Virus record (IMG/VR): IMGVR_UViG_3300030110_003594
Coordinates: 1-64,000 of that record
DNA length: 64,000 nucleotides
From: a virus
Strand: one strand, 5' to 3'
The position numbers were made by a program, and so were the translations under genes. This document shows, piece after piece, positions 2,911-52,708 of the stretch (the first letter of the stretch is position 1; each line of letters begins with the position of its first letter). A model generated the notes under the pieces. That model ran no database searches. It worked only from the letters and a program-made list of their open reading frames with translations, and was not told the origin of the DNA.

Positions 2911-3768
2911 TTACCAAAGAGGTGATGGATCTATATCACCACTAGACATATTAGTCATAGTTCCATTATAACCACTTGGCATTGATACTTCTTCATAAAT
3001 TGTTGGATAAGTTGCTGGTCCATCAGGAGATCCCATTCTCCACCAAGCTTTTAAAGTAGCAGCATGAGCGGCTGTATAATCATTAATAGTTGTTCCAGTG
3101 GGTTGTCTCCAATCTATTCCATTATTATTAGAATCATATTGAGCTTTAACAGCTTTTTCAGGTAATGCTGTTTGATGAATAGTAATATCTCCTAAGTATC
3201 CTGGTCCATAATATTTAATAGTTCCTGAAGCTTTACCATCAGAACCTATACGAGAATCTCCAACATAATCAAGAGTTAAATTTGTATTAGTTCCAGAATT
3301 AGTAGTTGTTTGATTAACACCATTAATAAATATTTTCCAACCAGCAGCAGTAGATGAAGTAACACCTCCATCAAAAACCCAAGCTATGTGAGTCCAAGTA
3401 GTAACTGGAACAACATAAGTAGTGGTAACACGTGTTCTTCTATTATTAGATCCAGCACCTGCTACACCGCTATTTAAACCCATCAAATGCATTTGTATTT
3501 TACCTGTGTTAGCAGTTTTACAATGCATACCATAATATTGATTAGTTCCTTGTCTTCCAATAGTTAAAATAGGTTTTCCATAACAGGCTGTACTATCAAA
3601 ATATACCCACGCTGTAACCGTTACACCAGTAGTATCATATTGAGTATTAGTAAATTCTAAACCTGTAGCATGTCCTAAATCTAAATATTGATCTACACCA
3701 TTAAAATCTGTAACATGGTTGTTTCCACCTCCATATTTAAACAATGGATTTATAACATGCATTGACAT
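2911..3768 (-). CDS. LamG/concanavalin A-like lectin domain virion protein
   Basis: DFNGVDQYL, TVTAWVY, WTHIAWVFDG, KIFING, RIG, LKAWWRMG, NGTMTNM. The ATG at 3768 overlaps the upstream TAA (TAATG), so it is a better start than 3804. Confidence 0.8.
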   Translation of the reverse strand: MSMHVINPLFKYGGGNNHVTDFNGVDQYLDLGHATGLEFTNTQYDTTGVTVTAWVYFDSTACYGKPILTIGRQGTNQYYGMHCKTANTGKIQMHLMGLNSGVAGAGSNNRRTRVTTTYVVPVTTWTHIAWVFDGGVTSSTAAGWKIFINGVNQTTTNSGTNTNLTLDYVGDSRIGSDGKASGTIKYYGPGYLGDITIHQTALPEKAVKAQYDSNNNGIDWRQPTGTTINDYTAAHAATLKAWWRMGSPDGPATYPTIYEEVSMPSGYNGTMTNMSSGDIDPSPLW

Positions 3769-5297
3769 TATACAATAGTTGATTGATAACCCATAATAAT
3801 ACATTTTAATCCTACAGGTGCTCCAAAAACAGAATCTACTGTAAATCTAAGCACAGTATCACAATTAATACTTATTGCTGCTGCATCACTTGGAAGCTGA
3901 ACTCTAGCAGCTGATGTAACACTTGACCACTCACCTGCATCAATAGTAGGTTTAACATCAAATATGCTACTCCAACTAACTCTATTATTTGTACTTGTTT
4001 CTACATTAACTGTTAATCCAGCTGATTCAGTACCAGATGGAGGTGTATTTACATGAATTTTAACAGGAGATTTGCAATGATCAGCATCATCAACTGCACC
4101 TCCATACCAAGATATTGTAAAATTATAAGGTATTCTAAATTCATATTTAACACCAGTTGTTATAGGTCTTACTTCATCAGTTAGTGTTACAACAAAACTT
4201 TCATATTTACGTGCAGATAATTTTAATGTATCTGTAGTAGCTGCATCAGCAGTAATACTACTATTAGGTGATTGTATAGTTAATGTATCAGAACATCCTG
4301 ATGCTACTGTACTACCAGTGGTACCGGTTATAGTTTTATATACATCTGCACATCCTCCTGCAGTATCAGTCCACGGTACACTAACAGCCATCTGTTGAGC
4401 TGCATTTAATTGAACTGGATATGTTCTACTAGCTGTTCCAGTAACACCTGTTTCATAGGTTTGTGTTAATGTAGTATTTGATCCTAATTCAACACCCCCT
4501 AAAGCTGTCGCTGTTGCAACAGGTAAAGTATAAGTAGTGTCAGTCCAAGGAACATTTACTACTAATTGATCAGAAGCATTAAATTGCAATCCATAAGTTC
4601 TTGATGCTGTGGTAGTTATAGCATTAGCTGCAACAGATTGTACAGCAACATCTTCTAATTTAACTAAACCTAATACAGAATCTGTTGCTTTAGCATATGT
4701 AGTATTAGGAGGTGTTGACCACGTATTATCTCCTCTTAAAAAATTTAAACTATTAGGAGTACCTGTTGCAGATAAAGATGTTGTTAGAGTATTTGTTGCT
4801 GAAACTACATTATTTATAAATGTACTATCTGCAAATGTTACAGTTTCAGTATTATCAATTTGTTGAGTAGTAGATCCATCACTTAATATCCAGTAATCCA
4901 TTGTACTTCCACCACCCCCACAACATTCACCATATACTATATTACAAGCTGTAATCTCAGGTCTAAAACCTCCACCACCATGTACAAATACACGTAAAAT
5001 ATGATCAAGTTTAGGATTAATTTGTTGATATACTGCAGCATTTAAAATAGCTTCATAAATTTCTGATAAATCTGTTCCTCCAGATACTACAAGTTGAACT
5101 GTATCAACAGCATTTACATCATTGGCTCCTCTAAAATACATTCTAAAGGTAGTTGCATTAACATAACCATATCCTAACAAAGATTCTGTAGGATACCATT
5201 GTTCTAGAGTAGCTGAAGCTTTAAAATAATATATATATTTAGGAAGATTGTGTCCAGGAAAAGCAGATGCCGGTATAGAATTAACATTAATAGTCAT
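3768..5297 (-). CDS. tail fibre protein
   Basis: FLRGDNTW motif and two AT...LGxVxL...SRTYxxQxN...VxVPWTDT repeats typical of Bacteroidota phage fibres; Thr/Ser-rich. Confidence 0.7.
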   Translation of the reverse strand: MTINVNSIPASAFPGHNLPKYIYYFKASATLEQWYPTESLLGYGYVNATTFRMYFRGANDVNAVDTVQLVVSGGTDLSEIYEAILNAAVYQQINPKLDHILRVFVHGGGGFRPEITACNIVYGECCGGGGSTMDYWILSDGSTTQQIDNTETVTFADSTFINNVVSATNTLTTSLSATGTPNSLNFLRGDNTWSTPPNTTYAKATDSVLGLVKLEDVAVQSVAANAITTTASRTYGLQFNASDQLVVNVPWTDTTYTLPVATATALGGVELGSNTTLTQTYETGVTGTASRTYPVQLNAAQQMAVSVPWTDTAGGCADVYKTITGTTGSTVASGCSDTLTIQSPNSSITADAATTDTLKLSARKYESFVVTLTDEVRPITTGVKYEFRIPYNFTISWYGGAVDDADHCKSPVKIHVNTPPSGTESAGLTVNVETSTNNRVSWSSIFDVKPTIDAGEWSSVTSAARVQLPSDAAAISINCDTVLRFTVDSVFGAPVGLKCIIMGYQSTIV

Positions 5298-5819: not shown

Positions 5820-5822
5820 ATC

Positions 5823-5897
5823 TTAGCATTCTTTAGCGTGAGAACCATCACATGAACCGTCCTCAGCTTTTGTTTTACCACATTTACATTGAGCCAT
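5823..5897 (-). CDS. 24-aa CDGSH iron-sulfur (NEET-type) micro-protein (not in ORF track)
   Basis: MAQCKCGKTKAEDGSCDGSHAKEC* carries CxCxxT...CDGSH. A-rich leader; stop lies 3 nt from the next ATG. Confidence 0.75.
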   Translation of the reverse strand: MAQCKCGKTKAEDGSCDGSHAKEC

Positions 5898-5918
5898 AAT
5901 TTCTTTTTTTTTTTAATT

Positions 5919-6221
5919 TTACATCATTCCATCAAACATCCCAGGAATTCTTCTTCCTCTTTTGTCCATAGAAGGGGAACCTCCACCATAGTACTCTTTC
6001 ATAGTTCTAGGTTTTTTTACAGATTTACCATATTTAGCGTAACCCATATTATTACGTACTGATTTAGGTAGTGCTCTTAAACCAGCACCATCTTTACCGC
6101 CAGGTACTTCTTTAAGTTCTTTACCTATTTTTGCAGTCATCATCATTTTTCTTTTCATGAGTTCTGCTTGTTTCATCCCTAGTGGGGTATATGGAAATTT
6201 CATTCCGTTTACATTTGGCAT
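5919..6221 (-). CDS. small basic Met/Gly-rich hypothetical (putative internal virion) protein
   Basis: 100-aa ORF with AKIGK/AKYGK/YYGGG motifs and GLRALPKSVRNNMGY. Confidence 0.65.
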   Translation of the reverse strand: MPNVNGMKFPYTPLGMKQAELMKRKMMMTAKIGKELKEVPGGKDGAGLRALPKSVRNNMGYAKYGKSVKKPRTMKEYYGGGSPSMDKRGRRIPGMFDGMM

Positions 6222-6243
6222 AATTTCTAAATTTTAATTATTA

Positions 6244-6651
6244 TTATAACATTCCGTTTGGTCCTACACTACCACCTCTTTTCATTCTTCCACCTCTTTT
6301 TCTAATACCTGTTTCTCTAGGAACTATACCTTGTTCAAGTTGCGTACTTGTAGTGTTTCCAAAACTGACATCAGGATTAATCATACCTCCTCCCCTTGGA
6401 TCTATAGGAAAGTTAGGAACACGCGGATTTAAAAGTTGTCCTTTAATATGTGGACTCATATCTTTATGTGAAGGTCTAAATATATTAGCTATTCTAGTAC
6501 CTATATTACCTAACCATGATCTTTCTTGTGGTGGTGGAGGTGTAATCATAAAGTCTTTGAATGAATCTGGACCCCATCCCTCTTGAGCTTTAAACATTCC
6601 TGGAACTGCTTTTCCACCGTATTTATAAGGTTTTTTCATATATCTTGGCAT
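6244..6651 (-). CDS. GG-motif small protein ending GGSVGPNGML
   Basis: YKYGGKAVPGMFKAQEG, RKRGG, MKRGG. Confidence 0.65.
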   Translation of the reverse strand: MPRYMKKPYKYGGKAVPGMFKAQEGWGPDSFKDFMITPPPPQERSWLGNIGTRIANIFRPSHKDMSPHIKGQLLNPRVPNFPIDPRGGGMINPDVSFGNTTSTQLEQGIVPRETGIRKRGGRMKRGGSVGPNGML

Positions 6652-6671
6652 AATTTCTAATTTAATTATTA

Positions 6672-6887
6672 TTATAATACTCCATTTGGTCCTACAGCAC
6701 CTCCATCTTTGTATGTTTCCTTACCTTTTTTTGCCATTGTTTGTATAATAGATGACATACAGTTTGGATCTTCTTTGCAATTCTTTATATCTCTATTTCC
6801 TTTAATTACATTCGCAGCTGTAAAAGCTGCAGGGGCTGCATAAGCTGCTCCTAATAGTCCTAATCCTATTTTAGCACCTTTTTTCAT
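6672..6887 (-). CDS. GG-motif small protein ending GGAVGPNGVL
   Basis: 71 aa with an N-terminal hydrophobic helix and YKDGG; ATGA overlap with the holin. Confidence 0.6.
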   Translation of the reverse strand: MKKGAKIGLGLLGAAYAAPAAFTAANVIKGNRDIKNCKEDPNCMSSIIQTMAKKGKETYKDGGAVGPNGVL

Positions 6888-7282
6888 TTTACTTTTTTTG
6901 TTTTTTCTAATGATCTACCACCAAAGTAAGCACCTATCACAGTTATTAATACTAATTGAAGTAAGTCAGTCCATTTAGCTTCAACAACAAAGTTGATAAC
7001 ACCTGCATCAATAAATATTAATAACACTGTGCTTACAACTAAGAATGCTAATACTAATGGTCTTATATTTTTTGATAACCAAGAATCAGAATTCATGTCT
7101 GCTTCCCATCTTGATGTAATTTCTTTTTCCATTTGAGTTTCATAGCTAGCTATTAACTCTTGCATTTTTTGTTTAGCTTCAAGCTTTTCTTCTTTAGATG
7201 TATGTAAGTTATCTATAACTCCACCTACACTTTCTACAAGATCTCCTGCTCCTCCACTAAATATTTTTCCTAATATACTCAT
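6884..7282 (-). CDS. holin, GTA_holin_3TM-like
   Basis: TSKEEK...RWEADMNSDSWLSKNIRPL followed by TM segments and AYFGGRSLEK. Confidence 0.8.
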   Translation of the reverse strand: MSILGKIFSGGAGDLVESVGGVIDNLHTSKEEKLEAKQKMQELIASYETQMEKEITSRWEADMNSDSWLSKNIRPLVLAFLVVSTVLLIFIDAGVINFVVEAKWTDLLQLVLITVIGAYFGGRSLEKTKKVK

Positions 7283-18376: not shown

Positions 18377-21300
18377 TTATTTTACATAAAAATCTTTCAT
18401 AGTATCATAAGCCTTAAATCTATTAATTGCATACCATAATGGGATAATGTCTCCCCATTCTTTAGCTAATTTAAGTTGTCCTTTTCTATTCCCTCTTTGA
18501 TAATATACATCTTTATCTTTTAACATATCATAATCATCATTAAACATTTTATAAGTAAATGCAGCTCCGGTACCAAAAGTTTTATACATAACATCTGACA
18601 TTTCACCCATTAATCTTGTAACAGCAATAGGTGATTTCATTAAATAGAATTGTTCTCTAAATCCAAGAGCAGGCCAGAAGAATAATAATTCTCTACCTTG
18701 TCTATTCATTTGATATACTAAAGCATTTTCAAATCTTTTTCTTGTTATTGATTTATCATCATCTTCATCATCAAATAAAGAATCTAATATCATAGCCGTT
18801 GCAAATGAAGATAACATTAATGCAATTTCTGCAGCAGTTCTTTTTGCTCCTGTTATTTTAGTTAAAGCTCTTTCATCTCCATATTCATGCTTTAATCTTT
18901 TAACAGTTTTGTTTATATTACCCATTTCTTTAAAGAAAAAAGCCATAAAGCTCCAAGCACTTTTCCATCTACCTTCTACCCATCCTAAATTTTCATCATA
19001 ATATTCTTTTCTATATCTAGCTTTAATAGCTGGAGCAACCCATTTATGAAACTGCATAGCTAAATTTCCTAACCAATGTTCTTGAATAACTGTTCTATCA
19101 ACATGAGCATAGTTACCATGTACTTGTTTATTTACTTCACGTATATTATTTCTAATATCATATCTTTGAGTATCATCATATTTAACCTTAGTGCCGTTTC
19201 TTTTTACTAAAGTATTATACCCTTCTTTAATAGTTACTTCACCTGTCTTGTTATTAAATTGATATGCATCAAATAAAGACATCTCATCTAATACATTTCC
19301 TGCATCATCAAGTTTTTGAACTTGAGTTGACATTAATATTGCAATACCAATTTTAGTTTGTACATTATATTCAGCACCATCCTGAAGTAAATAAGCCCAT
19401 GACATAGCATCCCTAAGTCCTCCTTTTCCTTTTGTTCTTCCACTCTCACGTATATCAGCTTTATCATCCATCATTCTAAAAAGTCCAACTAAAGCTTCAT
19501 ATTTACTTCCAGGAATATATTTTTTATATTTTCCTTTTCCTCCAATTATTCCTGCCCATGTAGAATTATCACCCATCTTTTTCATTAGATCTGGTAAAGC
19601 TCTCGTATTAAATAATTTAGTAGCTCTTACCATTGCTTCAGGTTCAAAGTATCTACCTCCTATTGTCTCAATAGCGTTGTTAATTCTACCAACCATATAG
19701 TTATTAAAGTTACCCCATGGGTTAAGACCTACATATGTTAAAGATGATAATTGAATTAATCCTTTTGAAACTTTATCCATAAATCCTTCTGATTTCTTTT
19801 CATTATCATAGTATACCATGTGCATCCACTTTCTTGCTCTTTTAGCAATTTTGGATTCAGTAGACATTCCAACTGTTTTTTCTTTTCCTTTAAATCTTGT
19901 ATATAATCTATCTATTCCAGCTGGAGAATAGTTTCTATTATCTATAACTTTCATAATAGCTGAAAGAGTATTTTTGATCTCACTCATTACTTCATAATTT
20001 TCAGCCATTGAAGAAAATCTTAAAAGATTGTCTCCCATATCTAAACTCATTTCACTTAACGTTGGTTTAGATTGTATAGCTCGTCTTCTTCCTACTAATT
20101 CAGCTTTCTTTTTATCATATTGATCTTTTTTAATTTTCTGTTTACTCCAACTATCATTTAATAACTGAATTTCTTCTTCTATTTTTTTAAGTTGTTTTTC
20201 ATTTTGAGGAGTACCAACATAAAATATAGGTAATGTATCTAAGAAATATCCATGTTCATCAACCATTACTTTTTCTTGTCTTGATGTTGTTGTAAATAGA
20301 TCTTTCATTCCTCTTGTGGTTTTACCCCATAAACCTGTTATAAGATTACCTTCTCTTTTAACTGCATTTAAAGTATTATCTCTTACAAGAGGAATATTTC
20401 CAACCATTTGATTTTGAACAGATGTTGGTAATTTTTGTAAAAGATCATCTTCAAAGAATTTTTTATACATTAAATAAAATTCTTTTTGTGCCTGTTCCAA
20501 AGAATTTGTAGGAGAAGGATTCATTAATTTTACATACTTAGGATCTCTCATATCTACTCCTGATCTACTAATACTTCTTTTTTCTACATATTGTCTTTTA
20601 ACAAAATCTCTATTAGTTGGTTGAGATACTGTTCCATCTAATTCATCATTAACCTGATTAGCATATGTTACTGCTTTACTTTCATAATATTTTGATTTAA
20701 ACTCATTATATGCTTTTCTACTAACACTTGGTTTTCTTTTCCAATATCCACGCTTACCTTGTGATACCCATATAGCAACTTTATTACGGGCATCTTTAAA
20801 TTCTTGTGTATATCTATGAAAATCTCCATCAACTAATTGACCATTAACTTTATCTTCTGCAGCCATAAAAGCTCCATATTCTCTTCTAGCTAAAGCTAAT
20901 TCTTTATTATATTTAAGTTCTTCTGTTGTATAATCTTCTTTATTATCTTTATATATGTATTCTTTCCAATTACCTTGTTCATCAAATAATTTATCTCTAA
21001 TCTCCATCCACCTTCTATCATACTCCCATCCAATTTCTCTTACGTATTTACCAGTAAAATTATTATCCTTATCAAAAACTAACATGAATGAATAATCAAC
21101 TTTACCTCCTGGAGATAATGCTTCTAATTTACTTGTCACTCTTCTTATTTGATCATTTCTTAACTCAATAAAATCTAATGCTTTTTGCACTTGTCTTTTA
21201 TAAAGTTTATCTATCAGTTGAGATAATGGGTCCTTACTGGTAGCAAGATCTCCTGTACCATACTCTACAGTACTAATATCTTGCATCTCAGTCATTATCT

Positions 21301-23956
21301 TATCAATCTCAGCATCAGTAAGATCTGTTCTATTTGTATTTTCTGTATATATTCTTCTTACATAATTATAAATACTTTCATCAATAATACCGTCCTTATC
21401 CATAGACTCTTCACCATTGATCTCTCTTATTTTATTTTTTAATTCATTTCTTAATGATTCTTTTTTATGTCCTAAAGAAACACCATCTGGAAGAGGAACT
21501 ATGTCTAAACCTGAATATGTTTTAACAATAGTTTCCATATTCATAATCCTATCAATATATTCAGGAGTATTCATATTAGCAGGATCTTTTGCATACTTTA
21601 TGAAGTCATCCATTTCTTCAATAGACTGAGTTAATAATTCTTCATATACTACATCAACTACGCCATCTAATATAGCAGCGTTTATATCACTAATAGATCT
21701 ATCAATTTCAACTAATAACCTTTCTGTATTAAAAGATTGTTTTTCTCTATCTTGTAATTGTTGTAAGGCATCTCTTCTGGTAATTAATTTTTCTTTATAT
21801 AGTTTTACATTTTCAACTAAACCTTGATAAATTATATCATCAACTACATCATCTTGTGGTAATGCATCTTTTCCTTCTACATAAGGTTCTTCTTTCATAC
21901 TTTCCTTATGTTGCATATCTACATTTAAAGGAACAACTTGATCTATAAAAGAAGCATTTTGTGATGAAGGATGATTAATTTCTCCATCTAATCTAAACGT
22001 ACCTTCAAATTTTTGATTTTTTCCTTTACCTGTTACATCAACATGGAAATGAATAGTCTTACTCATAGAAGAAACTGTATAACCCATGTTAACTAACATA
22101 CGTCTATAAGTATTAACTTGCATGCTTTGTTGCATACGTGTAGACATTTTAAATTGTTCTTTCTCACTTAGATTAGAATCATAAAAATTACTTCCTTCAT
22201 TAACAGGCCATGCTTTATCATACATGTCTTCTTTAATAGAGTTTTTACTAACTTTTAAATCAATAATTTCTAATGATCCATCTTCATGTACAGCTAATAA
22301 ATCTATTGTTCCTGCAGTTTCTGATCTTGCATCAGCTACAACTACTTGTGGTATTATAACAGCTCCACCATTTCTATACATGTTTAATATAGTTTGTATC
22401 TGATCAACAGCTCTTTGAACTTGTTCTTTATTAAGAACTGTCATTTGTGGTAATAATTCTTGTGCAATTACATTATCACCAGGTTTAAGCATAGTAATAT
22501 GCTCCATAATAGCATCAAAGTCATTACCTATATCTCTATTAAGTTTATATAGACCCTCATCATCTTTTAGTTGACCTTTGATTTTAGTAGTAACAGATCC
22601 ATATTGTTCACCTGTTTCTATATTATAGTACTCATGCTTATCTTTGTCTAATACAACTAGTGGTGTATCAGTACCTGTAAGTTTACTACCTACAGTAAAA
22701 TCTTCAAATTCTTGTTTTTTATTCTCTGCTGCAGTATGAAATAATTGATCTATAATTTGTTCTTGAATTCCTGTAGTAGTTTGTGATTTTAAATTTTTAA
22801 CTGCAGCTTTTAATTTAGGAGTTAAAGAATATTTAACTTTTCTATCTAATACGGATTCTGTTGTAAATTTAAATTGTAAGTCCCCGGTATTCAATAACTT
22901 AGCTATACTTGTAAGATTGTTTCTTGAATTTAAATCCTTTGCTTGTATTGTTAATCTACCACCAGTTATGAAAGCACTTAAATCTTGAATGATGTCTAAT
23001 AAAAATTTTAATAGTTGACTTATTTTACTTCTCCAATTCTGAGTTGGTTCATTTTCATATTCTTTTTTAAAGTGTCTAGATAATGCTTGTGTTACTAATT
23101 CAAGATCTCTATCACGTTGATTAAAACCTCTTCTGTCAGTGTATTCTGCATTAATCATTGCTGTTAATTCAGGAAACATTGATCTTGCTTCCTTTAATAA
23201 TCCATTAAATAAATCTTTCTTTTCTAGATATACAGCATCAACAAAGGGATGTAATATTTCTTCTATAGCAGTCTCTGGTGTCACACGTCCTTTAATTATC
23301 ATTACATTACCTCTTACATAATAACTATTAACTTGACTAAAATCTTTTATACCTCTTTTTTGTTGTGGGCTTAAACTATCCCAATATTCTTTTGCTTCTT
23401 TTACACTTACAACTTGAACATTTAGTTGAGGAAACATTGAGTTCATATGTTGTATAATATCTAGCACATGTGTATGATCTTTATTATTATCTTGTGCTAT
23501 AATATCTCTTGGAGTAAACATGTTTTCATTTATGCTTATCTTATATGTATTTTCTGTTCTTTCAATAGATACCATACTAGAAGGTATATTCCAAAATTGT
23601 AAAGTTCTTTCAACTTTTGTTCTATTTAAATTTGCAATCCTTCTATTAGATTCTGGTTTTCCATATTGTTTGTTAGTTGTATCTGTTGTATTAATATACC
23701 ATTCACCATTATATTTACTTACAAAACCTTTTTCATATAAGTTTTTAAGAATTGCTTCAGAATATTCTCTCTTCTTTAGAGATAACATTGTTTTTCTTTG
23801 ATCCATAAAAACATCTATCTGAGAAATTGTAGGTATTAATTCAGATCTATTACTTTTTTGCCATTTGTTGATTATACTATCAACAATAATAGGACTAGTA
23901 AATTTATCCTGTAATGCTTTATATTCTGCTGTATTTCTATTATAACAAACTGCCAT
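18377..23956 (-). CDS. large virion cargo/ejection protein with degenerate zincin and PD-(D/E)xK nuclease-like domains
   Basis: TAIEEILHPFV; AGTIDLLAVHEDGSLEIIDLK followed by QVNTYRRML; helical C-terminal region with VHGNY...MQFHKW. Directly downstream of the RNAP gene. Confidence 0.7.
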   Translation of the reverse strand: MAVCYNRNTAEYKALQDKFTSPIIVDSIINKWQKSNRSELIPTISQIDVFMDQRKTMLSLKKREYSEAILKNLYEKGFVSKYNGEWYINTTDTTNKQYGKPESNRRIANLNRTKVERTLQFWNIPSSMVSIERTENTYKISINENMFTPRDIIAQDNNKDHTHVLDIIQHMNSMFPQLNVQVVSVKEAKEYWDSLSPQQKRGIKDFSQVNSYYVRGNVMIIKGRVTPETAIEEILHPFVDAVYLEKKDLFNGLLKEARSMFPELTAMINAEYTDRRGFNQRDRDLELVTQALSRHFKKEYENEPTQNWRSKISQLLKFLLDIIQDLSAFITGGRLTIQAKDLNSRNNLTSIAKLLNTGDLQFKFTTESVLDRKVKYSLTPKLKAAVKNLKSQTTTGIQEQIIDQLFHTAAENKKQEFEDFTVGSKLTGTDTPLVVLDKDKHEYYNIETGEQYGSVTTKIKGQLKDDEGLYKLNRDIGNDFDAIMEHITMLKPGDNVIAQELLPQMTVLNKEQVQRAVDQIQTILNMYRNGGAVIIPQVVVADARSETAGTIDLLAVHEDGSLEIIDLKVSKNSIKEDMYDKAWPVNEGSNFYDSNLSEKEQFKMSTRMQQSMQVNTYRRMLVNMGYTVSSMSKTIHFHVDVTGKGKNQKFEGTFRLDGEINHPSSQNASFIDQVVPLNVDMQHKESMKEEPYVEGKDALPQDDVVDDIIYQGLVENVKLYKEKLITRRDALQQLQDREKQSFNTERLLVEIDRSISDINAAILDGVVDVVYEELLTQSIEEMDDFIKYAKDPANMNTPEYIDRIMNMETIVKTYSGLDIVPLPDGVSLGHKKESLRNELKNKIREINGEESMDKDGIIDESIYNYVRRIYTENTNRTDLTDAEIDKIMTEMQDISTVEYGTGDLATSKDPLSQLIDKLYKRQVQKALDFIELRNDQIRRVTSKLEALSPGGKVDYSFMLVFDKDNNFTGKYVREIGWEYDRRWMEIRDKLFDEQGNWKEYIYKDNKEDYTTEELKYNKELALARREYGAFMAAEDKVNGQLVDGDFHRYTQEFKDARNKVAIWVSQGKRGYWKRKPSVSRKAYNEFKSKYYESKAVTYANQVNDELDGTVSQPTNRDFVKRQYVEKRSISRSGVDMRDPKYVKLMNPSPTNSLEQAQKEFYLMYKKFFEDDLLQKLPTSVQNQMVGNIPLVRDNTLNAVKREGNLITGLWGKTTRGMKDLFTTTSRQEKVMVDEHGYFLDTLPIFYVGTPQNEKQLKKIEEEIQLLNDSWSKQKIKKDQYDKKKAELVGRRRAIQSKPTLSEMSLDMGDNLLRFSSMAENYEVMSEIKNTLSAIMKVIDNRNYSPAGIDRLYTRFKGKEKTVGMSTESKIAKRARKWMHMVYYDNEKKSEGFMDKVSKGLIQLSSLTYVGLNPWGNFNNYMVGRINNAIETIGGRYFEPEAMVRATKLFNTRALPDLMKKMGDNSTWAGIIGGKGKYKKYIPGSKYEALVGLFRMMDDKADIRESGRTKGKGGLRDAMSWAYLLQDGAEYNVQTKIGIAILMSTQVQKLDDAGNVLDEMSLFDAYQFNNKTGEVTIKEGYNTLVKRNGTKVKYDDTQRYDIRNNIREVNKQVHGNYAHVDRTVIQEHWLGNLAMQFHKWVAPAIKARYRKEYYDENLGWVEGRWKSAWSFMAFFFKEMGNINKTVKRLKHEYGDERALTKITGAKRTAAEIALMLSSFATAMILDSLFDDEDDDKSITRKRFENALVYQMNRQGRELLFFWPALGFREQFYLMKSPIAVTRLMGEMSDVMYKTFGTGAAFTYKMFNDDYDMLKDKDVYYQRGNRKGQLKLAKEWGDIIPLWYAINRFKAYDTMKDFYVK

Positions 23957-23962
23957 ATCTAA

Positions 23963-26900
23963 TTAATTAGTGTAACATTTCTTTAACCGTTCTTTCATTT
24001 CTTCTACTGAGTCCATATTATTAGGGTGATTAAATTCTTCTATTAATTCTTCAGGTGTAGAAATATCTAACCCTCCTTCTTTAATTGTTCTAGCTATCAT
24101 TGCTTTTTGAACTTTTGATAAATTTTCATAAAATTCTGTTAGCTCTTTGTTTTCAGTTGGTGTTTTTGTATTCTCATCCATTGCCATATTTTTCTTAAAG
24201 GTATTTATATCAACACCTTTACCAGTGAAAACAGTTCCTTCTTTACTCATTTTCTCAAGCTTTGACAAATATACAGGTTTTGTTTCAGTATCTGTAGTAG
24301 TTTCTGTAAATTTCACAGAATCATTTGTTGCTTCAACAGATGTATTAGTTCCTGGACCAACTTTCTTTGGAGGTTTTTGATCTTGTCCTGCTATCTTATC
24401 AATAATAGATGCTTCTTTTCCATCATTAACTGCAGCATCTTTTTTCTCTAGTTGTTCTTGAAGATATTCATATGTAGATCTATCACCCCACATGAATCCC
24501 ATACCATTTTGTTGCATAGATCCAAATGGTTTAAATTCCCTATACACTACCCTATGCCCTGTTACAAGTCCAAACTCTTGATCAAAGTTTATCATTTGAG
24601 GTGTATAGTTTGGATCTGATATATCTGTTTTTTCAATTTTCTTTGATGAATAAACTTCTTCTAACATAAACATTCTATAGTCTGGCTTTTTTCTAGTACC
24701 TATATTCATTTTTACTACTACAGGTGTTACCATTACTTTAACTGTTTTATCATTAATCTTTTCATCTATTAACTCAATACCTGTTGTTTGTAATGTTTTT
24801 TCAAAAGTAGATCCTTTTGGAATTTCTCTATGTTTACCTTTTTTAGTTTTCTTCTTTCTACCACGTTGTTTAAATAATCTAATTTCTAGAGTTCCAGAAT
24901 CTTGATCATAAATAATAGGTTTGTTTGCTGTTTTCTTTCTTCCTAATACTTCTTCTTCTGTTTCTGTTATTTCTTCTGTTTCTTCTTGTACATCATCCAT
25001 ATCTTTTTTCTTACTAAGATATTTTTGAACACCAAATTTTGTAACTTTTATTTCTTTAGCAAAGTATACATTATTTCTACTTTGCATATAACCTTCTGTA
25101 ATTTCATTAACCATTTCGTTAAAGTCTATACCAAATAGATTTTTATATTGTTGTTTTGATATAGATTCACTGTTAAATAAATCATTAACTCCTTTTGTTA
25201 CCATTAGTATTTCATCTAATAATGGGGCAGGAATTATACTTAAGAAAGATCCTTGACTGTATTGTAATCCATCTTTCACTAGTAAATAATGAATTAAATG
25301 AACAACATCTTTTCTTATAGTTGGAATTGCATATAAGTCTCTTAAACTATTTTGTAAATTTGTTACTTGTGTTGGAGATAACTTACTCCAAGTATTCATA
25401 ACAGCTTGATTTATACCAGATTTATTATTAGGATTTTTTGTATCTTTTTTAAATATGAAATTATCTATAAAGTAATTTGATTGTTTTTCTCCTCTTAGAT
25501 AATCTTGTATATTTCCAATTACTTTATTAATAGTTAATCCTTCACCAGCAAATTCATCATATATCATTCCATTTTGTAATGACTCTATTAGCTGTGCTCT
25601 TCCTGTTTCTTCTAAATATTTTGTATAAGCCTTTCCAATAATATAACTTAAAATATCTTTTTTAACTTTTTCAATTCTTTCAGGAGTTCTTGCACTTGAA
25701 TCCATATTAGAAACTATACTCATTTGAAGTTTTCTAAATTCGTTTGTTTCAGTAATAAATATTGAAGGAGTTAATTGTTGAATATTTTTAAATATCTTAT
25801 AGTAAGTTGATTGAAAATTATTTCCTTTAAATAATATTCTTGCGTCAAAAGGTATCTTAAAATCTTTTGAAAATTGAGCTTGATTTAATTCAATTCCTAA
25901 TTTATCAAAGCTTTCAAATGAATCATACATTTCTTTCATACCCCTATCTAAACCAGCAACTTTAGTAGCTAAAGCTTGAATATGTCCTGTATAAGTTTTT
26001 AATTCTCTTGCTTGTTGAAATTGTTTTAAAATAGCATATCGTTCATGTGTTTTTAATTCTTCCCCTCTAATGTGTTTCATTAATAAATCTGTTGTGACAT
26101 TTATCTTTTTTGCATTAGCTGCAGCAAGACTATCTGTTTCTTCTATAGCTACAAGTTCTGATTTAAGTAATCCATTTATACCAGGATCAGTAGGTTTATC
26201 TTTATTAGCTGCTAAAGAATACATAAATTTAATATCCGGTTGATTAACAAGTAATATTGATGTTTGAATATCAACACCAATAGATACTAAATTACCAACA
26301 ACAGCTAAAGCATCTTTATTTAAGCCAAGTTTTGCTAATAATCTTTCTTTAGCATTATCTGTAGCAGCTGTAACTAAAGCAGATATAATATTTTGTTTTC
26401 TAGTATAAGGATTAGTTTTATCTGGTTTACCTGTATTTGGATCTATAGTATAATCTCCTTTAAAGCTTTTATATTTAACACCATTAAGTTCAATATTACC
26501 ACCAAGAATTGGAAATCCTTTGTTATTAGTTTGTCTTAAATTAATTTTATTTTCTTTAAGCATATTAAATATAATATTAGGCAATACAATAGCTCCAATA
26601 GATCTTGCTCCTTCTTTATTATTTTTCCAAGCTCTATACATTCCTACCATATTATCTACCATCACACCTTCTTCTTTAACTTGTTCAGCTAATTCTGGAA
26701 GTGCTGCTTCTATTATTACATTTCCATCTTCATCTTTTAAACCAGCAATAAAATTCCAAACTTCTTCTAAAGGATCTAAATTAGCTGGTTCATAAGCAAG
26801 TCCAACTTTTCTACCATTTCTTCCTTTTGTCATTCCTTCATTACCTTGTAAAGCATATTTAGCATCTAATGCTATATTACTTTGTGCTGCTGTATATGGT

Positions 26901-29900
26901 ACTCTATTGTGTTTTCTTTTATATTGTATAAATTCATCAAATGTAACTGGCATATTTAATATTCTTAACGCACCAATAATTGCAGCAGAAGGAAGTTCTT
27001 CTTTTCTTTCTAAAACAGGATCTACTATATTACCTCTAGAATTCCATACTTTAGTTGCCATATTAAGAGTAGTTCCTTTTTTTCTTGATTCTTTTATGGT
27101 ATATTCTAAGTATTCTTGATATTGTTCATTATCATTTTCTGTTTTACCATATTCTACAAACTCCCCATCCTTTCTATAGAACTCTTTAAATTGTATATAT
27201 AGTTTATCAATATCAAAGTCAGCCCCAGATATTTCAATTAAATCTGGAGGAAATACTCCTGAAGAACCATAGAATACTGGCATAAAGTCTACTAACTTAA
27301 GATTAACTGATGAGTGTTTATCTTGTGATGGAATACGTGTACCAAATCCTTTTGATACAACATCTGGTATCATCTCTCCAGTTTTAACATTTTTTAAATC
27401 TTGATGATAAGCAGGCATCATAAACTCTGAATATACTAATCCTGTTTCATTTCCATTTTCATCATATTCTTTTACGTTAGCTTTTAATTCATCTACATAT
27501 AAATCATTAACCTTAATACCATTAAATGTTTTATTTTCTTTATCACTCCAATCTAAAAAGTCAATTTCTGGTCTATTTTTAAGATTTTTATAATCATCCA
27601 TTCTAATAACTTCCCATCTACTTGGTTGTTCAGTTACAGGATCTAATTCTATAACTTTTTTAATTACTTTCATTCCTACACCAGAAACAAGAGCAACTGA
27701 TTCACCATTTACTTTTTCACTTAACACGCTTTTAGTAAAGAATGACATAAACAATTCTTGGAATTTATTTATAGTTATAGGGTTATTTAAATCAAACTTA
27801 GGAGCTCCAGTACTATCTGTTTCAAATAGTTCCATAAATTGTGGACTTGATCCTGATGCTGCTAAGCTTTCTTGTGCATACATTAAAAATGCTTGAAGAT
27901 CTGGAGTTACTTCTCCAAGTCTAATACTTTCTTGTAGTTCATCTTGACCTTTTTGGAAATCAAATATTAAATTTCTTCTGTTTAAATACTTAATTTCTAC
28001 TCTATTACTAATAGCATCATTATAGATTTGTCTAATCTTTCCTATTGAAGTCATTTTTCCAGCAAACATTACTTCAACACTATCATCTTGTTCACTTGTA
28101 ATAAGTTGTTTTATTTGTGTTGGGTCAATAATAATTTGTTTATTAGATGGATTTATTTGTTGTAACCTCATCCAACGTGCATCTAAATCTGTTATATCTT
28201 CTGGTCTTAATTCTGGATTACTATCAAATGCTCTTTCATTAGATATAATGTTTTTCTTAATCATTTTAGATGCAGATTCTGGAGCAGCAATAGCTATAGT
28301 TTCTTCTCCATCTTGTTCAATTTTTTCTAACTTTATTCTAAGATTATGCATAGCTTCTCTACCAGGAAGTGCAGTTGCAAATTCAGTTGCTGGATCAGAA
28401 CTTAATGCTTTAGTTAATACAAAAGCAGACATTTTTAAAAATGTTTTACCATCAGCATATACTAATTTTTTTGAATTAATAATAGCATCTAACTCTTTAT
28501 ATCCCTGCTTTGTTAAACCTGAACCATAAAATTCATCTATACTAATATCTTCACCTGCTTCTATTCTATCTAAAATTCTAGATTGTGCAGTAGTAAGAGA
28601 TCCAAAACCAAACATCATATATCTAAATGCTTTAGGTGTTATCCACATTTGAGCATCAGTTTCAGTAACAGGTGCTCCTTCTTTACCTTTTCCACCATAT
28701 TTAGGAGGAGTTTCAATATCTGTTAATGTAACAAGACTTATATGTTTAGTTGCATGATTTACACCATGACCTCCTATTATATTATCATTTTCATCATATC
28801 TATAAGGGGAAGCAACAACACTGCTAGCATTTGGTCCAGCAGCATTTACAGCTTTCATTCTTTTAATTTCATCTACTGCATCTTTAAAACTCATAGATGC
28901 ATCACCTAAAAGAATTTGTTTTATTGACATTCTATTTAAGTAATCATTAAAGAATATTTGTTTTAAATTATGATTATCAGGATTATTTACTTTAAGGTTT
29001 AATAGATCCATAGACTTTTTAGTATTCCTGTTTGTTTTACCTTCAGATGTTTTTAATTGATTTAATAACCTACTGTCTACTTGATTAATAGCTTGAGTAC
29101 CACCTGTTCCAATAATAGTATTGAATTCATCAAATTCTTGCATCAACCTTGTTTTAACTAACTCTGTAATATCAACTCCTGTATCTTCTTTTATTTTCTT
29201 TTTAGCTTCACTATATGTTAACTCTCCTTCTCTTGCAAGATTTTGAAGAGCTTCTATAATAGAATTATCAGTTACAACTTCAACATCTCCTATAGTTGTT
29301 TTTTCTATTTCTAATTCTGATTGAGGAACAATTTCCATTACTCCATAACTTGTTGTACCCTTTAACCAATCTCTTTGTTTAGCAGTTCTTACATAATAAG
29401 TTTCTGCACCAAGTGATACTTGTTGGTTATTTTTTGCACTTTTTATATCAGATATATCATTACCTAATAATTCTTTAATCTGATCTATACTATATGACTC
29501 TGCAGACTGTACTCCTCTATATGTAATTGCATACATTACTTCTGATGGAATCTTATTTTTTAAAGTATAAACAGGAGTTAGTACTGTCTCACCTTGATTA
29601 AGACCTAATTTTGTAATTACTTTACCTTCTCTTAATAATATTTTAGCACCACCATCTTGATTTAATCCTTCTATTTCTTGTGGACCAGCTGTAATTTTTA
29701 TTTCTTCTCCTACTTTTCTTAATGCCTCAGTCTTTTGACTTTTACTTTTTAGTAGTTCTTTTGTTTTGTTAAACTTAGCTGCTCTATCCTTCTTATTATT
29801 TTTATCATTTATATTATTTGGATTAAAATCATTATAACCTTTTATTTCATCTTCTGTATATCCTTCTTTTTCATTTACCTCACGGTCAATTCTGTTATAT

Positions 29901-32900
29901 TCATTTTCTATTTCATTTTCAATTTTATTAACATACTCATCTGTTAGTTCAGATTTTCCATCATTTAATTCAACAGAAAATATTATAGGTAATGGTACAA
30001 AGTCAGCTGTATTAGATTCAGATATAACAGTTATATTTGTTAAAGATGTTGTAAATTTATTAGTTATTTTAGTACCATTATCATCAAAAGTTTCATATTT
30101 GGTTTCTTCTACTTTACCATTCATATTATTATAACTTGATAAATATAAATTCATCATTTGAGATAAGAAATCTTTAGGTGTAGAGTCACCAAATGAAATA
30201 GCTTTTTTATCTAAATCAATACCATTAGAAGATTTAAATCCTTGTTCATGTTCTTCCAATTCAACTAATTTTTGACCTGATACTCTAGATACTCTTAATT
30301 TTCCATCTATAGCTAATTGTCTAAATCTAGGATCATCTAATAAATAATTACTAGAAAGAAATGCATCTTCAGACATTAAGTCATCTAAAGCATGCTCACT
30401 ATTTAATTCAGCAACTTTTTCTAGATTATAAGTTGGCATCTGATGTGCATATATAAGTTTACCTTCTGGATTTCTAAATACTGTTGCACCTACTGTATCA
30501 TCAAATATTGCATTAAGTTGAGCAAGCTTTTTAATTTTAGATTTTACATCTGTACCTTCTGCATTTACTTCTTCTTCATTATTTTCAATAGACTCATCAC
30601 TCATATCATAAAATAAGTTTCCTTTTTGAAGTCCACTTTTAGTTAAGCCATGATTTGAAATAGCAACTTCTATTTCATTAACATCATCAAGATTAAATTC
30701 TAATAATTCTCCACTAAATGTTTTAACAAATTGTGATTGTGCTTTTGTTTTATTAGTTATACCATTGTTAAGTATCATAAATTTAACTGTTAAATAACTT
30801 AACTTAATACCAATAGTATTAAAAATTTCATCAGCTATTTCTCTTGATTTTGAATCTAATTGTTTTTCAGAGATTCTTTTCTTTCCTGCTAAAAATTGTA
30901 TACTACCCCATGGTGTTTGTGCAGCACTTACTGCTTTAGGATCATTATTTAATTTTTCTAATTTAGTTGTATAATTTTCTTGCCACTTATCTGTTTGAGT
31001 ACTAGCATCATCTCTATGATTTGCTTTAAATATATTAACAAGACCTTTTGTTGTATCTGTTTCAATATATAAATAATCTGTTCTAAATTGTGAAAAAGCT
31101 TTTAAAATACCTTGGAAGAATGATGCATTTGTTATTTGTTTGAACTTAAATTCACCTTCTATAAGTTCTTCTAAAGTAACGTTAGACATATTTATTCTAT
31201 CAAATATAGCATTAATTACTGCACTTGCATCTGGACTTGATTGTGCAAATAATTTTAATTTAACTAGCATTATTTGAGGATTTGTAATACCAGCTAATGA
31301 TTTCATTAATGCATTATAAGCTGTTATATAATCAACAGGAACAGAAACTAATTCACCAGTGAACTCATCTTTTACTTGTTTAGTTTGGGTTGCAAGAAAC
31401 TTACGTACAGATTTACTTAAAGATTTAAAACCTCCAATTTCATTTGCTGCAGATTCATATTCTTCTGTAGTTTTTACTGAACCATCTGGAGACATATCTG
31501 TTTTCTCAAGAATCTCAAGCTCTTGAGTTGCATCCATATCAAATAATGTTAAATATTCATTAACTGAATTTATAACATCATCTTTATATTTTACTAAAGA
31601 TTCATGTCTTTCTTTTAATCTATCTTTAAAATCACTCCAATTATCTCTATCTGCATAAAAGAATTCTTCTTCTCCTTGTGCATTTATAGTTGATCTTTTA
31701 GGATTATATTGATGATTATATTCATTTACTGTTTCTTCTAATATTTGCTTAGGATTATATTGACCATCAAAATCTTTTTGTTGAGAAATTTCATCTACTT
31801 TTTGCATGTAATTAGCTCCTATTTGAGCTACAATACCATTTGTTTCTTCTTGATTAAAGTAGTTATTAATATAAACAATTCTACCATCAGGGATAATTTT
31901 TCCATCTTTTATTACTGGTCTAGGACTTGCAATAGGTTTTCCTTTTTTAATTGCTTTCAATGCTAGATTAGAAGGTATTCCTGTTTTTACTTCATTATCT
32001 AGTTCAGCTAAACCAGTTAAACCCTCCATTGCTGATAAAGTAAATCTATTTTCTTGTATTGCTGCATTTTTAAACTTACCTGAATCTATACTTGTAAACA
32101 AAGCATTGTATTCTAAATTGTTAGGTGCTATAAATATACTTTTAATCCACTCTAATATACGTGTAAATAAACTTTTTACTTCTGAACTTGCTCTGGATGA
32201 TCTTGGGTTTGTTTTAAATTTTTCAAATTCATCTGCTAAATATTCTTCAAATACTCTATCATTAAGATCTTTATCATTTAGAACTGCATATGATTTTGAT
32301 AAACCTTTCAATATAGATCTAGCTTGCTCCATTGTTTTAACAAATGTTCCAGGTAAAATTTCATAGCCTTTTGCAGATCTCATTTGTTTTAATACATCTG
32401 TTTTTGCAAGAGATAGATATTTTTTAATTTCTTGTTCAGTTAATAACATTCTAAACACCCCGTGAAATGCTTCATGGTATCTATATGAAGTTTGTCTTCC
32501 TGTATATATATGACCTCTAAGAGATTCAATTCCATCAGATACATTCTTGAGTGACATAACAAATGCACCAAGAGTAATACCATTAGCTTTTAATCTTCTT
32601 GCTAAACCATCTACATCTTGTATATTTATAAAGTCAGGTAAGTTTCTTTGTGCCCATTCAAGAAAGATATTTATATCTTCAACATCTCTACTATCAAAAT
32701 TATCTACTACCTTATATCCTAATTGACTTTCTAATTTAGTTAGTTCTGAATTTAGTTTAGATAACTCTTCACTTACATCTAACATATCTTCTACTTGTAA
32801 ATTTAATTTACCTTTTGATATTGTTGGATTTGCTTCTTTTATTTGAGCTCTATATTCATTTTCTAATTGTCTTTTCTTAGCTGCTATTTCTTTTTTCTTA

Positions 32901-39559: not shown

Positions 39560-39570
39560 ACTGAAGGTTT

Positions 39571-42500: not shown

Positions 42501-43011
42501 TTTCAACATAAGTAGGCATTCCTTGTTTTAATGCATCTTGTGCTGTTCCATTTTTAAAATCTTCCATTTGATATTTAAGATCTTGAACACCAACTTGCCA
42601 ATATCTATCACGTATTTCTTCACTTGGATCCGTCATATAACCATTAGCAGTTTGCATTTCTTTAGAATACAGCTTGGTAAATGCTAAATCTTTTACTACA
42701 GATTTATCTTCAAAGAAAGGTTTAAATAATCCTTTAGCAACATCTACATTTTGTTGTAATGATAGATCTGTTCCTGAAACTTGCTTTATACCATTACTTA
42801 ATCTATTAGCATATTGCTGTCTAGTACTTTCATTGTCTTCTCTAGATAGAGGTGCATAGACAACTTTGCTGTATAAATTATTAAGTGTTTTAAAATTTGT
42901 GTCATACCTGTCCTGTCTAACCGTTAATACGTCAGATAAGAATTTATAGTCTGGTTTAAATGGTTCCAGAACCGGTATATAATCTGTTACTCCTTTTATA
43001 TAAGTTGCCAT
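39571..43011 (-). CDS. large virion cargo/ejection protein
   Basis: 1146 aa, helical N-terminus (PFKPDYKFL...RQDRYD); immediately upstream of the RNAP gene as in crAss-like genomes. Confidence 0.6.
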   Translation of the reverse strand: MATYIKGVTDYIPVLEPFKPDYKFLSDVLTVRQDRYDTNFKTLNNLYSKVVYAPLSREDNESTRQQYANRLSNGIKQVSGTDLSLQQNVDVAKGLFKPFFEDKSVVKDLAFTKLYSKEMQTANGYMTDPSEEIRDRYWQVGVQDLKYQMEDFKNGTAQDALKQGMPTYVENPNIYERSFESLKDSELSIKQTTLEGDWIITTKNGTALTRQIAGYEREVIGEDPNGNPIYGDKYKLDDNNNPIPIYRNPAAEYLKNTVMKDPIVMRGLLTEAKVRSRQFAENPENIQKYGSIENAKKAWADEILGTQTKADMKDLVEKESELTKEQIAARNWEAYKKEYGIVPGSAEEEAWLLSQFNMRLAKTNRDAVKSRIMNQKGPTSDLDGLMNKAYSAYMASVMGPKMNAAAIAYSQVDAEQTFEANPFKKMEHQHRYDLNRMAIQHQYDLNKIAIKAQADIELAKYKSSLESQNTGNVLGLTNGGVFTGTGGAEISGSLTGYDANNDGKISKKERSHVDILNENNEATLELGNNLTKSEISFIETAIELLPTELQQSKFINKGGTITYQFYDEGTGKTTTKTSPLATAWADLTTTGSTNRAEFDRLLKNIGDKYTNLITTENGSQLNYDLAKLNIKDPSVVSNLHQQYKSIIEGRTRFNEKVEEMNKVYNTVHDYALTVDKETINSSTYQGQENSIPPVLLTQGEIDALRKGNQWWEVVEMKNNGQIIEPILDGKGSPVRRFVTKEEYQSIFADMVGLDANERAQLSADNNVNKDKHDYDFFLRKKRDYWIPITGTDKEHIAWNYWDDDYVSATSGNEVMDMEDLDTAWQFNREKAIEDGADYYDGIMKNMNAIMGSADAPELGHVYNLRGQLIGQPEEGVGEAGYTTYSTTYDAASPSTIALNQIKSLLNATQELSASADGYTFSLGNNLDKTTTQITKGKEGVDESQMENVKSVYEAIMFQINTGVIDKTKGRPYINTTYVEKVGGPDQETDIAGYNVRVGANYANTYKDYFGVGDNFDEDAFETFKKHGITITIPKTADSNPYKSTNQLLSYADLMIKDDGFYNSLPVLNGGSYTIYPNSKGQYVQETTTYLFDEKTGAITANDVTSIILDVDANQLDALVVNMDQYLMNIAKENVTKKTLWNQKNSK

Positions 43012-43015
43012 ATTA

Positions 43016-43023
43016 CAAAGATA
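43016..43023 (-). promoter_or_regulatory. possible Bacteroidota -7 promoter element TATCTTTG
   Basis: Matches TAnnTTTG 4 nt upstream of ATG 43011 within a 59-nt gap; the -33 element is weak. Confidence 0.35.
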
Positions 43024-43070
43024 ATAAAATTTTATAAGTTTTAAACATCATATCAATACACTTTTTAAGT

Positions 43071-48425: not shown

Positions 48426-48428
48426 AAT

Positions 48429-52649: not shown

Positions 52650-52661
52650 TAAGTTACAGTT

Positions 52662-52683: not shown

Positions 52684-52708
52684 TTCATGAGATTTACTAA
52701 TGATTCGG

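Follow-up and report, generated by a model that had tools for sequence, protein, structure and literature searches.

A 24-codon phage micro-gene for a putative CDGSH-loop peptide belongs to a large, mostly unannotated family that recurs in lysis regions

The window analyzed here is the first 64 kb (64,000 nucleotides [nt]) of IMG/VR virus record IMGVR_UViG_3300030110_003594, which is 119,868 bp long and rated 100% complete; the window, from a marine phage, has a G+C content of 30%. On its minus strand lies a stand-alone open reading frame (ORF) of 24 codons, for which a sequence-only reading had proposed a CDGSH-type [2Fe-2S] microprotein. The frame was found as described, running from ATG to TAA, and its product contains all of the three-Cys, one-His ligands (Cys4, Cys6, Cys16, and His20), with three residues before Cys4 and four after His20. 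The A-rich leader and the tight packing were also borne out: the 25 nt upstream of the ATG are 72% A, and the micro-gene fills the 99-nt space between its neighbors, leaving gaps of 21 and 3 nt. The features at the site are as follows.

5823 to 5897, minus strand: mini-CDGSH micro-gene, 24 codons (ATG at 5897-5895, TAA at 5825-5823), product MAQCKCGKTKAEDGSCDGSHAKEC
5838 to 5888, minus strand: metal-ligand core, 17 codons, Cys4-x-Cys6-Gly-x-Thr-x4-Gly-x-Cys16-Asp-Gly-Ser-His20
5828 to 5826, minus strand: codon of a fifth cysteine, Cys24 (H-x3-C after His20)
5898 to 5918, minus strand: A-rich leader of 21 nt, with AGAAATT directly before the micro-gene ATG
5919 to 6221, minus strand: gene for a 100-amino-acid (100-aa) protein, the upstream neighbor, separated by the 21-nt gap
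5685 to 5819, minus strand: gene for a very basic 44-aa protein, starting 3 nt past the micro-gene stop (context only)

The start context AGAAATT-ATG is common to the micro-gene and the two preceding genes (6244..6651 and 5919..6221), and the relatives at loci L155, L203, and L088 have AGAAAT(T/A)ATGGC at the same place. The run of minus-strand genes from 7688 to 3768 is unbroken by a terminator-like site, and neither such sites nor Rfam families were found at 5000 to 8000 of the window.

The DNA pattern of the ligand core (TGY NNN TGY GGN NNN WSN, 18 N, TGY GAY GGN WSN CAY; about 37 bits) matched the window once and none of 100 dinucleotide-preserving shuffles of the window. A scan of 2.9 million viral contigs matched at least 120 stretches, where approximately one chance match would be expected by our own estimate, which was not computed by a tool. 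A second scan, of bacterial contigs representing one genome per species, also matched at least 120 stretches, and the conserved homologous ORFs anticipated by the sequence-only reading were thus found in viral and bacterial DNA alike. All counts of ORFs, motifs, and neighboring genes given below for these stretches are counts among the matches listed. The viral stretches held 118 motif-bearing ORFs, 79 of which were no longer than 45 aa and mostly 22 to 30 aa. In a neighbor tally of these 79 small ORFs plus the window copy (80 in all), the upstream gene was co-oriented in 73 of 76 cases and the downstream gene in 73 of 77, with gaps mostly between -11 and +12 nt that clustered at -11, -4, -1, and +1 to +5.

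Positions that the pattern left free were retained as well. A glycine two residues before the third cysteine, present as Gly14 in the window peptide, occurred in 100 of 105 unique viral DNA motifs, where all four Gly codons were used, and in 113 of 128 bacterial motifs. Motif position 8 was N or D in 87 of the 105 viral motifs, and position 6 was Thr in 89, where the pattern would also have allowed Ser, Cys, Arg, and other residues. Because such pattern-free positions are kept via synonymous codons, the micro-gene is real and conserved at the protein level. An alternative is that there is no gene at the site: the ORF could be fortuitous, could be left over from a longer CDGSH gene, or could be a coupling upstream ORF whose peptide does not matter. 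The ORF is indeed very short, matches no family library, was never called by a gene caller, and is located at a rearrangement junction. This alternative is at odds with the shuffles, with the hundreds of homologous small ORFs that have intact starts and stops, with the synonymous-codon conservation, and with the vacancy of the site for terminators and Rfam families. Additionally, the open frame spans only 29 codons, so the micro-gene is not a piece of a longer frame, and its flanks show no CDGSH-like remains. The no-gene explanation is already largely refuted, and we consider it extremely improbable.

The gene had been described as unannotated, and its exact peptide was absent from approximately 15 billion called proteins. 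Four other phage copies of at most 25 aa and a 26-aa copy from Paenibacillus were likewise absent from this collection, and a 30-aa family member was present. Since all six looked-up copies of 26 aa or less were missing, the shortest family members are systematically uncalled by gene callers. Among cultured phages, which the sequence-only reading had suggested searching with tblastn, there was no match to the peptide, and blastn found none to the region.

We delimited the family as mini-CDGSH, meaning the core C-x-C-G-x-[S/T]-x4-G-x-C-D-G-[S/T]-H in an ORF of at most 45 codons. The window micro-gene has this core in an ORF of that size, together with tight co-oriented packing and a same-strand holin gene within approximately 1 kb. 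A profile built from 67 short members retrieved 499 proteins of 12 to 79 aa at an E value of ≤0.01 and 410 representatives at an E value of ≤1e-3 among 1.84 billion. Mini-CDGSH is a large and mostly unannotated family of stand-alone proteins of 22 to 45 aa. Most members have two to five residues after the His, and the window peptide is a variant with A-E-D-G where the family commonly has N/D-P-x-G. A 114-kb relative (L076/L088) encodes MAQCVCGKTKDENGNCDGSHNS directly 3' of a holin-like gene. In phages, the module is also found joined to an XkdF-type protease and to a WYL_2 domain, at the N terminus of proteins of about 108 aa, and with acidic or hydrophobic C-terminal tails. What was already known is the CDGSH-type label that automated annotation gives to some members with at least 30 aa; the JGI name for some members is "CDGSH-type Zn-finger protein." A query of the ESM Atlas with the bacterial member P0099 returned unnamed clusters of 30 to 46 aa and one 34-aa cluster in which 76% of the members carry PF09360 (score, 0.81), which we treat as a lead only.

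Some recurrent arrangements were seen among the phage copies. The C-terminal tails ...LFDMNNLPFPYL and ...NEDVPFADKF/GD both recur (one or the other at L106, L117, L118, L123, L132, L141, L174, and L207 and at L138, L150, L157, and L156). They look like short docking motifs and may resemble the acidic ...PF tails of single-strand-binding proteins. A viral family of 108 to 110 aa carries the module at its extreme N terminus, followed by a conserved domain of unknown function (L102, L104, L105, L107, L110, L133, L164, L167, L183, L188, L193, L200, and L201); one of its contigs is labeled a giant-virus metagenome-assembled genome (MAG). The two closest copies of the window peptide (L155 and L203) have a membrane-anchored thioredoxin-like protein next downstream (10615..10995 at L155), which scores 22.6 bits with PF00085, just below the cutoff of 23.5.

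The identification of the peptide as CDGSH-type stood in part. In the accessible text of Lin et al. (2011, PMC3174974), the CDGSH consensus is given as Phi-C-X-C-X2-(S/T)-X3-P-Phi-C-D-G-(S/T/A)-H over 17 residues, and an integral domain, or cluster-binding module, is said to require a β-sandwich, an N-strand, and a lid-proline motif. The window peptide has C-x-C-x2-T and C-D-G-S-H, and its ligand order is the three Cys and one His of CISD proteins. The spacing between its second and third cysteines is nine residues versus eight in the consensus; two-domain CDGSH proteins of the ordinary kind (L229, 66.9 bits, and L304) likewise have nine residues here in their first motif. The only relatives detected for the peptide in the PDB are CDGSH/NEET proteins: when the family profile was compared with all PDB sequences, seven of the eight matches at an E value of ≤10 belonged to this class. 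The best was 3tbm_A (E = 0.0044, with a single one-residue gap), followed by 3tbn_A (E = 0.04) and five further chains, namely, plant and human NEET proteins, 3tbo_A, and CISD3 (E = 0.12 to 9.8). The eighth match was an unrelated 8.3-kDa protein, 1gh9_A (E = 0.61).

What did not stand was the full domain. With the Pfam model zf-CDGSH (PF09360), relatives with a single motif scored 11.3 to 15.9 bits and a tandem form scored 25.1 bits, below the gathering cutoff of 29.5, and these matches were confined to profile positions 29 to 48 of 48; the window peptide itself missed the cutoff and matched no Pfam family at an E value of ≤10. As judged from these comparisons, the mini-CDGSH core is homologous to the CDGSH/NEET cluster-binding loop and appears closest to bacterial type-4-like structures. 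Because the window product fails the Pfam threshold and is without the required β-sandwich, it is best described as a putative CDGSH-loop microprotein and not as a full CDGSH domain. Mini-CDGSH and the CISD/NEET proteins (PF09360; types 3 and 4, PDB 3TBM, 3TBN, and 3TBO) share the ligand loop C-x-C-G-x-[S/T]...C-D-G-[S/T]-H with three Cys and one His, and single and tandem forms exist in both. In contrast to CISD/NEET proteins, the mini-CDGSH loop is one residue longer, does not keep the Pro and flanking hydrophobic residues, lacks the N-strand, lid-proline, helix, and β-sandwich, scores below the gathering cutoff, and measures 22 to 30 aa versus 53 aa for the smallest CISD described in the accessible literature.

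Two other class assignments were considered and rejected. The SEC-C motif (PF02810), the metal-binding tail of SecA, has the form C-x-C-x8-C-[C/H] with adjacent third and fourth ligands and binds Zn or Fe. It resembles mini-CDGSH in being a very short terminal C-x-C-G... knuckle that is added to unrelated proteins and found at the cytoplasmic membrane face. However, the fourth ligand of mini-CDGSH stands at +4 (C-D-G-S-H), three residues further, and Pfam scans of the window peptide and its relatives gave no SEC-C match, on which grounds membership was rejected. A precursor of ribosomally synthesized and posttranslationally modified peptides was rejected because no maturase or processing genes recur next to the small ORFs; their neighbors are holin-like, transmembrane (TM), and endolysin genes in phages and YceI genes in bacteria.

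The chemistry of the site was weighed against a different reading of a real micro-gene, in which Cys3His holds one Zn(II) or a mononuclear Fe as a structural knuckle and not an Fe-S cluster. Such a peptide could bind protein or nucleic acid, or could buffer Zn or deliver it, e.g., to adjacent Zn-dependent M15-type endolysins; a Peptidase_M15_3 endolysin is the next gene downstream in six loci. The module is approximately 17 residues long without the β-sandwich said to be required for cluster binding, it occurs on the termini of unrelated proteins (XkdF-type protease, WYL_2, ribosomal protein bS16, and YceI), it forms tandem copies with Pro/Ala linkers, and the label "zinc finger" is still in use in Pfam and at JGI. 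Small Zn knuckles typically spread as terminal additions to unrelated proteins. On the other side, proven [2Fe-2S] proteins have a cluster cradle to which C-D-G-[S/T]-H and C-x-C-G-x-[S/T] correspond, such proteins also account for seven of the eight PDB matches including the best, and the D-G-[S/T] triplet would not obviously be needed by a Zn site. We regard the structural-knuckle reading as somewhat unlikely.

The sequence-only reading had placed the micro-gene in a late operon; the recurrent context turned out to be a lysis module beside holin genes. The following features of the window lie upstream of the micro-gene.

6884 to 7282, minus strand: holin-like gene, 132 aa (phrog_3427 "holin," E = 2e-33; Pfam GTA_holin_3TM, PF11351, 25.9 bits versus a cutoff of 24.8)
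5904 to 6896, minus strand: insertion block of 993 nt with genes of 71, 135, and 100 aa between the holin and the micro-gene

The holin-like gene is 986 nt upstream of the micro-gene on the same strand. Two further metagenome runs, X4 (two contigs) and X5 (one contig), have position 5903 joined to 6897, so that the micro-gene comes immediately behind the holin, and at L076/L088 the holin stop and the micro-gene start overlap as TAATG. The 71-, 135-, and 100-aa genes look like a 993-nt insertion that splits an ancestral pair of holin and mini-CDGSH. Other contigs skip the micro-gene, with further joints at 5834->6244 and 5819->6583; because different contigs skip different pieces, 5904..6896 and its surroundings are a mosaic hot spot.

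Over the loci fetched for the small viral copies (mean length, 8.4 kb), a holin profile found a phrog_3427-type holin in 48 of 79, always on the same strand (48 of 48). It was within 1,034 bp in 45 of the 79 and adjacent in 10. The longer forms of the motif had a holin in the locus in 2 of 39 cases. Among the 80 copies of the neighbor tally, the upstream neighbor was a 2-TM protein of approximately 125 to 142 aa in 23 loci and a phrog_3427/GTA_holin_3TM holin in 10, and the downstream neighbor was a small TM protein in 16 and 10 loci, in addition to the six with an endolysin. The cassette at L119 consists of a 2-TM protein, mini-CDGSH, a 51-aa TM protein, an M15 endolysin, a 60-aa ORF, a lipoprotein-like ORF, and a holin-like gene. 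The phage mini-CDGSH is an accessory gene of the lysis region, typically on the holin strand at a distance of approximately 1 kb or less, and often immediately behind the holin. A related holin is encoded by the cultured phages Vibrio phage 1.063.O and Nonlabens phage P12024L, in which no CDG[SAT]H was found at distances of up to 2.5 kb from the holin gene. In being a small gene of the lysis cassette that is co-oriented with the holin, mini-CDGSH resembles the antiholins of coliphages and their cofactors, which are cytoplasmic regulators of holin timing; no sequence relation to these regulators is known, and none of them is known to carry a metal site.

Two unrelated-looking small proteins encoded within the insertion block (6244..6651 and 6672..6887, both on the minus strand) end in a common tail, G-x-x-G-P-N-(G)-[MVK]-[IL]-L followed by the stop (...GGSVGPNGML and ...GGAVGPNGVL). 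The same tail occurs at L003 (3086..3388, 3391..3588, and 4306..4698) and is possibly a sorting, processing, or docking signal. DNA at 6645-6731 repeats 6215-6300 with 82% identity.

In bacteria, the motif-bearing ORFs were 26 to 33 aa in Polaribacter, Formosa-like, and other Flavobacteriaceae, 25 aa in Paenibacillus, 49 aa in acI-type Actinobacteria, and approximately 60 aa in tandem forms of Opitutales with Pro/Ala-rich linkers. The family is sporadic in hosts: among 201 evenly drawn Flavobacteriaceae genomes, 8 had the exact motif, mostly small genomes of 1.7 to 2.7 Mb, and the reversed control pattern gave 0. In all seven Flavobacteriaceae loci inspected, which were chosen by motif, the micro-ORF was directly downstream of a YceI-like lipoprotein gene (L249, L287, L223, L270, L212, L319, and L271), and YceI linkage was also present at L226, L253, and L311. 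Some bacterial proteins have mini-CDGSH at the N terminus, then a TM helix, and then a YceI domain, and in Coraliomargaritaceae MAGs a C-terminal extension of bS16 carries the module (L274 957..1511 and L312 7221..7823).

These bacterial copies bring in the main alternative to a lysis role, in which the phage gene is a host-derived accessory gene (a moron) that serves a YceI-linked host pathway, such as membrane or quinone redox homeostasis, with no direct role in lysis; holin proximity would then be no more than a sign that accessory genes gather in this region. The phage consensus differs little from the Flavobacteriaceae chromosomal version, a YceI operon or fusion surrounds bacterial copies, and occurrence is sporadic in phages as in the 8 of 201 Flavobacteriaceae-family genomes. 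However, a same-strand holin within approximately 1 kb in 45 of the 79 small copies, in two cassette layouts, exceeds what a loose hot spot would lead one to expect, with the caveat that the loci are not independent. A purely host-directed gene is, in our judgment, unlikely.

A candidate partner of the peptide is encoded upstream of the holin.

7455 to 7688, minus strand: 77-aa protein with an invariant C-x2-C-x2-C-P motif

The N-terminal parts of the proteins at L170 (76% identity) and L156 (69% identity) match this protein, and in both a mini-CDGSH module forms the C-terminal end. Its homologues number 72, nearly all of them 75 aa long and from marine viral or metagenome data, and of the 15 longer ones inspected, 9 have mini-CDGSH fused to the C terminus. 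In eight of these nine, the module has a fifth cysteine as H-x3-C, as in the window peptide (His20...Cys24), a rare arrangement among small viral ORFs in general, of which just 7 of 66 unique ones have a cysteine two to five residues past the His. The 77-aa protein has no Pfam match. Its domain is predicted to fold into five strands and a helix, and a Foldseek search of the PDB with the model of a fused 100-aa member gave no match at an E value of ≤1e-3 (the best, polo-box-like, had 0.17). Conceivably, the 77-aa protein itself binds an Fe-S cluster or another metal. The link with the micro-gene is not obligatory: the genome G001 has the 77-aa gene and no mini-CDGSH at all, and in G005 and G007 the micro-gene is present but the 77-aa gene is not. 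A complex prediction of the 77-aa protein, the 24-aa peptide, and 2Fe-2S gave a score of 0.03 and no answer, which is evidence for neither side. A comparable arrangement exists in type 7 CISDs; according to the accessible parts of the two surveys, these join CDGSH to DUF1271/Fer4_19, a mono-cluster domain of the 4Fe-4S kind (Lin et al., 2011, PMC3174974; Sengupta et al., 2018). As in the phage fusions, a small Cys-motif domain is followed by a CDGSH module on one chain. The 77-aa protein differs in having three Cys only and no Pfam or clear structural match, and in the window the two parts are separate genes 1.5 kb apart.

The sequence-only reading had suggested a near-minimal Fe-S carrier that might donate iron or clusters, e.g., to the phage radical SAM enzyme, and possible packaging in the virion; a supply of electrons to this enzyme was weighed along with these ideas. 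The radical SAM gene and a nearby gene are on the plus strand.

1088 to 1924, plus strand: SPL-family (spore-photoproduct-lyase-like) radical SAM gene (PF20903, E = 1e-16; context only)
143 to 1003, plus strand: gene for a DUF932 protein, before the SPL gene

The SPL gene co-occurs with the micro-gene in G000, G005, G007, and G008. However, it is present in all four complete relatives (78 to 87% identity in three of 112 to 120 kb and 39% in the fourth), including G001, which has an 87%-identical SPL gene and no CxC...CDGxH anywhere in 120 kb. Additionally, the SPL gene and the micro-gene are approximately 4 kb apart on opposite strands, and SPL is not among the recurrent neighbor clusters, which consist of holin, membrane, and endolysin genes. 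Nothing was found that ties the peptide to structural genes or to the virion. Donation to the radical SAM enzyme was thus not upheld, packaging found no backing, and we rate both as very unlikely.

Overall, we consider it probable that the window carries a real mini-CDGSH micro-gene whose product is a metal peptide and an accessory of the lysis region. Several points weigh against this reading. The consensus Pro is absent from the peptide, Q and S stand at two hydrophobic positions, and the β-sandwich, N-strand, and lid-proline motif are all missing. The peptide had no match in Pfam (at an E value of ≤10), PHROGs, or NCBIfam, and the homology to solved CISDs detected with the family profile is a weak link (E = 0.0044). 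The three-Cys, one-His ligands are present in every family member sampled, but the invariance of Cys, Asp, Gly, and His is forced by the search pattern and the profile derived from it and is not independent evidence. AlphaFold2 models of family members were too poor to use: a tandem member reached a pLDDT of 61.7 and a pTM of 0.23, and the fused 100-aa member reached a pLDDT of 71.1 with 56 to 65 in the module, both too weak to read the metal site. The fusions to bS16 and the Pro/Ala-linked tandems would be explained by an autonomous Zn knuckle no less readily than by an Fe-S site. As for the genomic context, the holin tally overstates the number of independent events because many of the 79 loci are from near-identical phages, and lysis regions also gather accessory genes. 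The closest complete relative (G001, 120 kb) has another gene order at the site and no micro-gene, the micro-gene was within 5 kb of the holin in just 1 of 80 holin-anchored relatives, and it is dispensable. No RNA sequencing runs containing the micro-gene stretch were listed. Of the neighbors, no relatives were found for a 121-aa protein, and the 100-aa protein had four related loci, none of which (0 of 4) had the micro-ORF.

The peptide would be cytoplasmic, because it has no signal peptide, and would fold only around a metal held by Cys4, Cys6, Cys16, and His20. Given that it keeps the C-D-G-[S/T]-H cradle, an acid-labile and redox-active [2Fe-2S] cluster would be favored, and we give this cluster about an even chance of being the bound metal. 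A single Zn or Fe ion is a less probable but substantial candidate, in view of the missing sandwich and the spread of the module like a terminal knuckle, even onto bS16. The peptide probably acts in pairs or docked on a partner: the tandem forms suggest the former, and the fusions to homologues of the 77-aa CxxCxxCP protein suggest docking on that protein, with which Cys24 might supply an extra ligand. The bacterial YceI/TM fusions and the phage holin neighbors point to the cytoplasmic membrane face. There, in what we tentatively propose as its likeliest role, the peptide may be a small metal- or redox-dependent adaptor that tunes holin triggering, and hence lysis timing, to the iron or redox state of the host. 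A more elaborate version appears doubtful at best: the 24-mer would bind [2Fe-2S] alone or as a dimer, its Cys24 would complete a second cluster with the 77-aa protein, and the two would make up a mini-ferredoxin in two pieces, a metal-based lysis clock linking the iron or redox state of the host to holin triggering.

If the 24-mer holds a [2Fe-2S] cluster, the family would constitute the smallest natural iron-sulfur proteins. If the loop alone suffices, this would overturn the published view that a CDGSH site needs a β-sandwich and would provide a natural, simply synthesized peptide scaffold of approximately 25 residues for Fe-S (or Zn/Fe) chemistry. For phage biology, mini-CDGSH is a recurrent and so far unnoticed component of lysis cassettes in abundant marine phages, with a hint that the timing of lysis may depend on iron or redox state, a matter of relevance in iron-poor oceans. 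For annotation, it is a family with hundreds of members missed by gene callers. No report of a phage-encoded CDGSH protein was found in the literature as judged by titles and the beginnings of abstracts, with most subscription journals outside the search. In the searchable literature, there was also no relevant report of a small stand-alone CDGSH protein or of CDGSH linked to YceI, holins, or auxiliary metabolic genes. The accessible parts of the two evolutionary surveys of CDGSH proteins (Lin et al., 2011, PMC3174974; Sengupta et al., 2018) contain no mention of viruses or phages, and the shortest form that they describe has 53 aa.

Elsewhere in the window, most of the DNA is occupied by giant minus-strand ORFs, which form a 45-kb run (18377..63999) of 1859, 5198, 1146, 1784, 1406, 1736, and at least 2012 aa.

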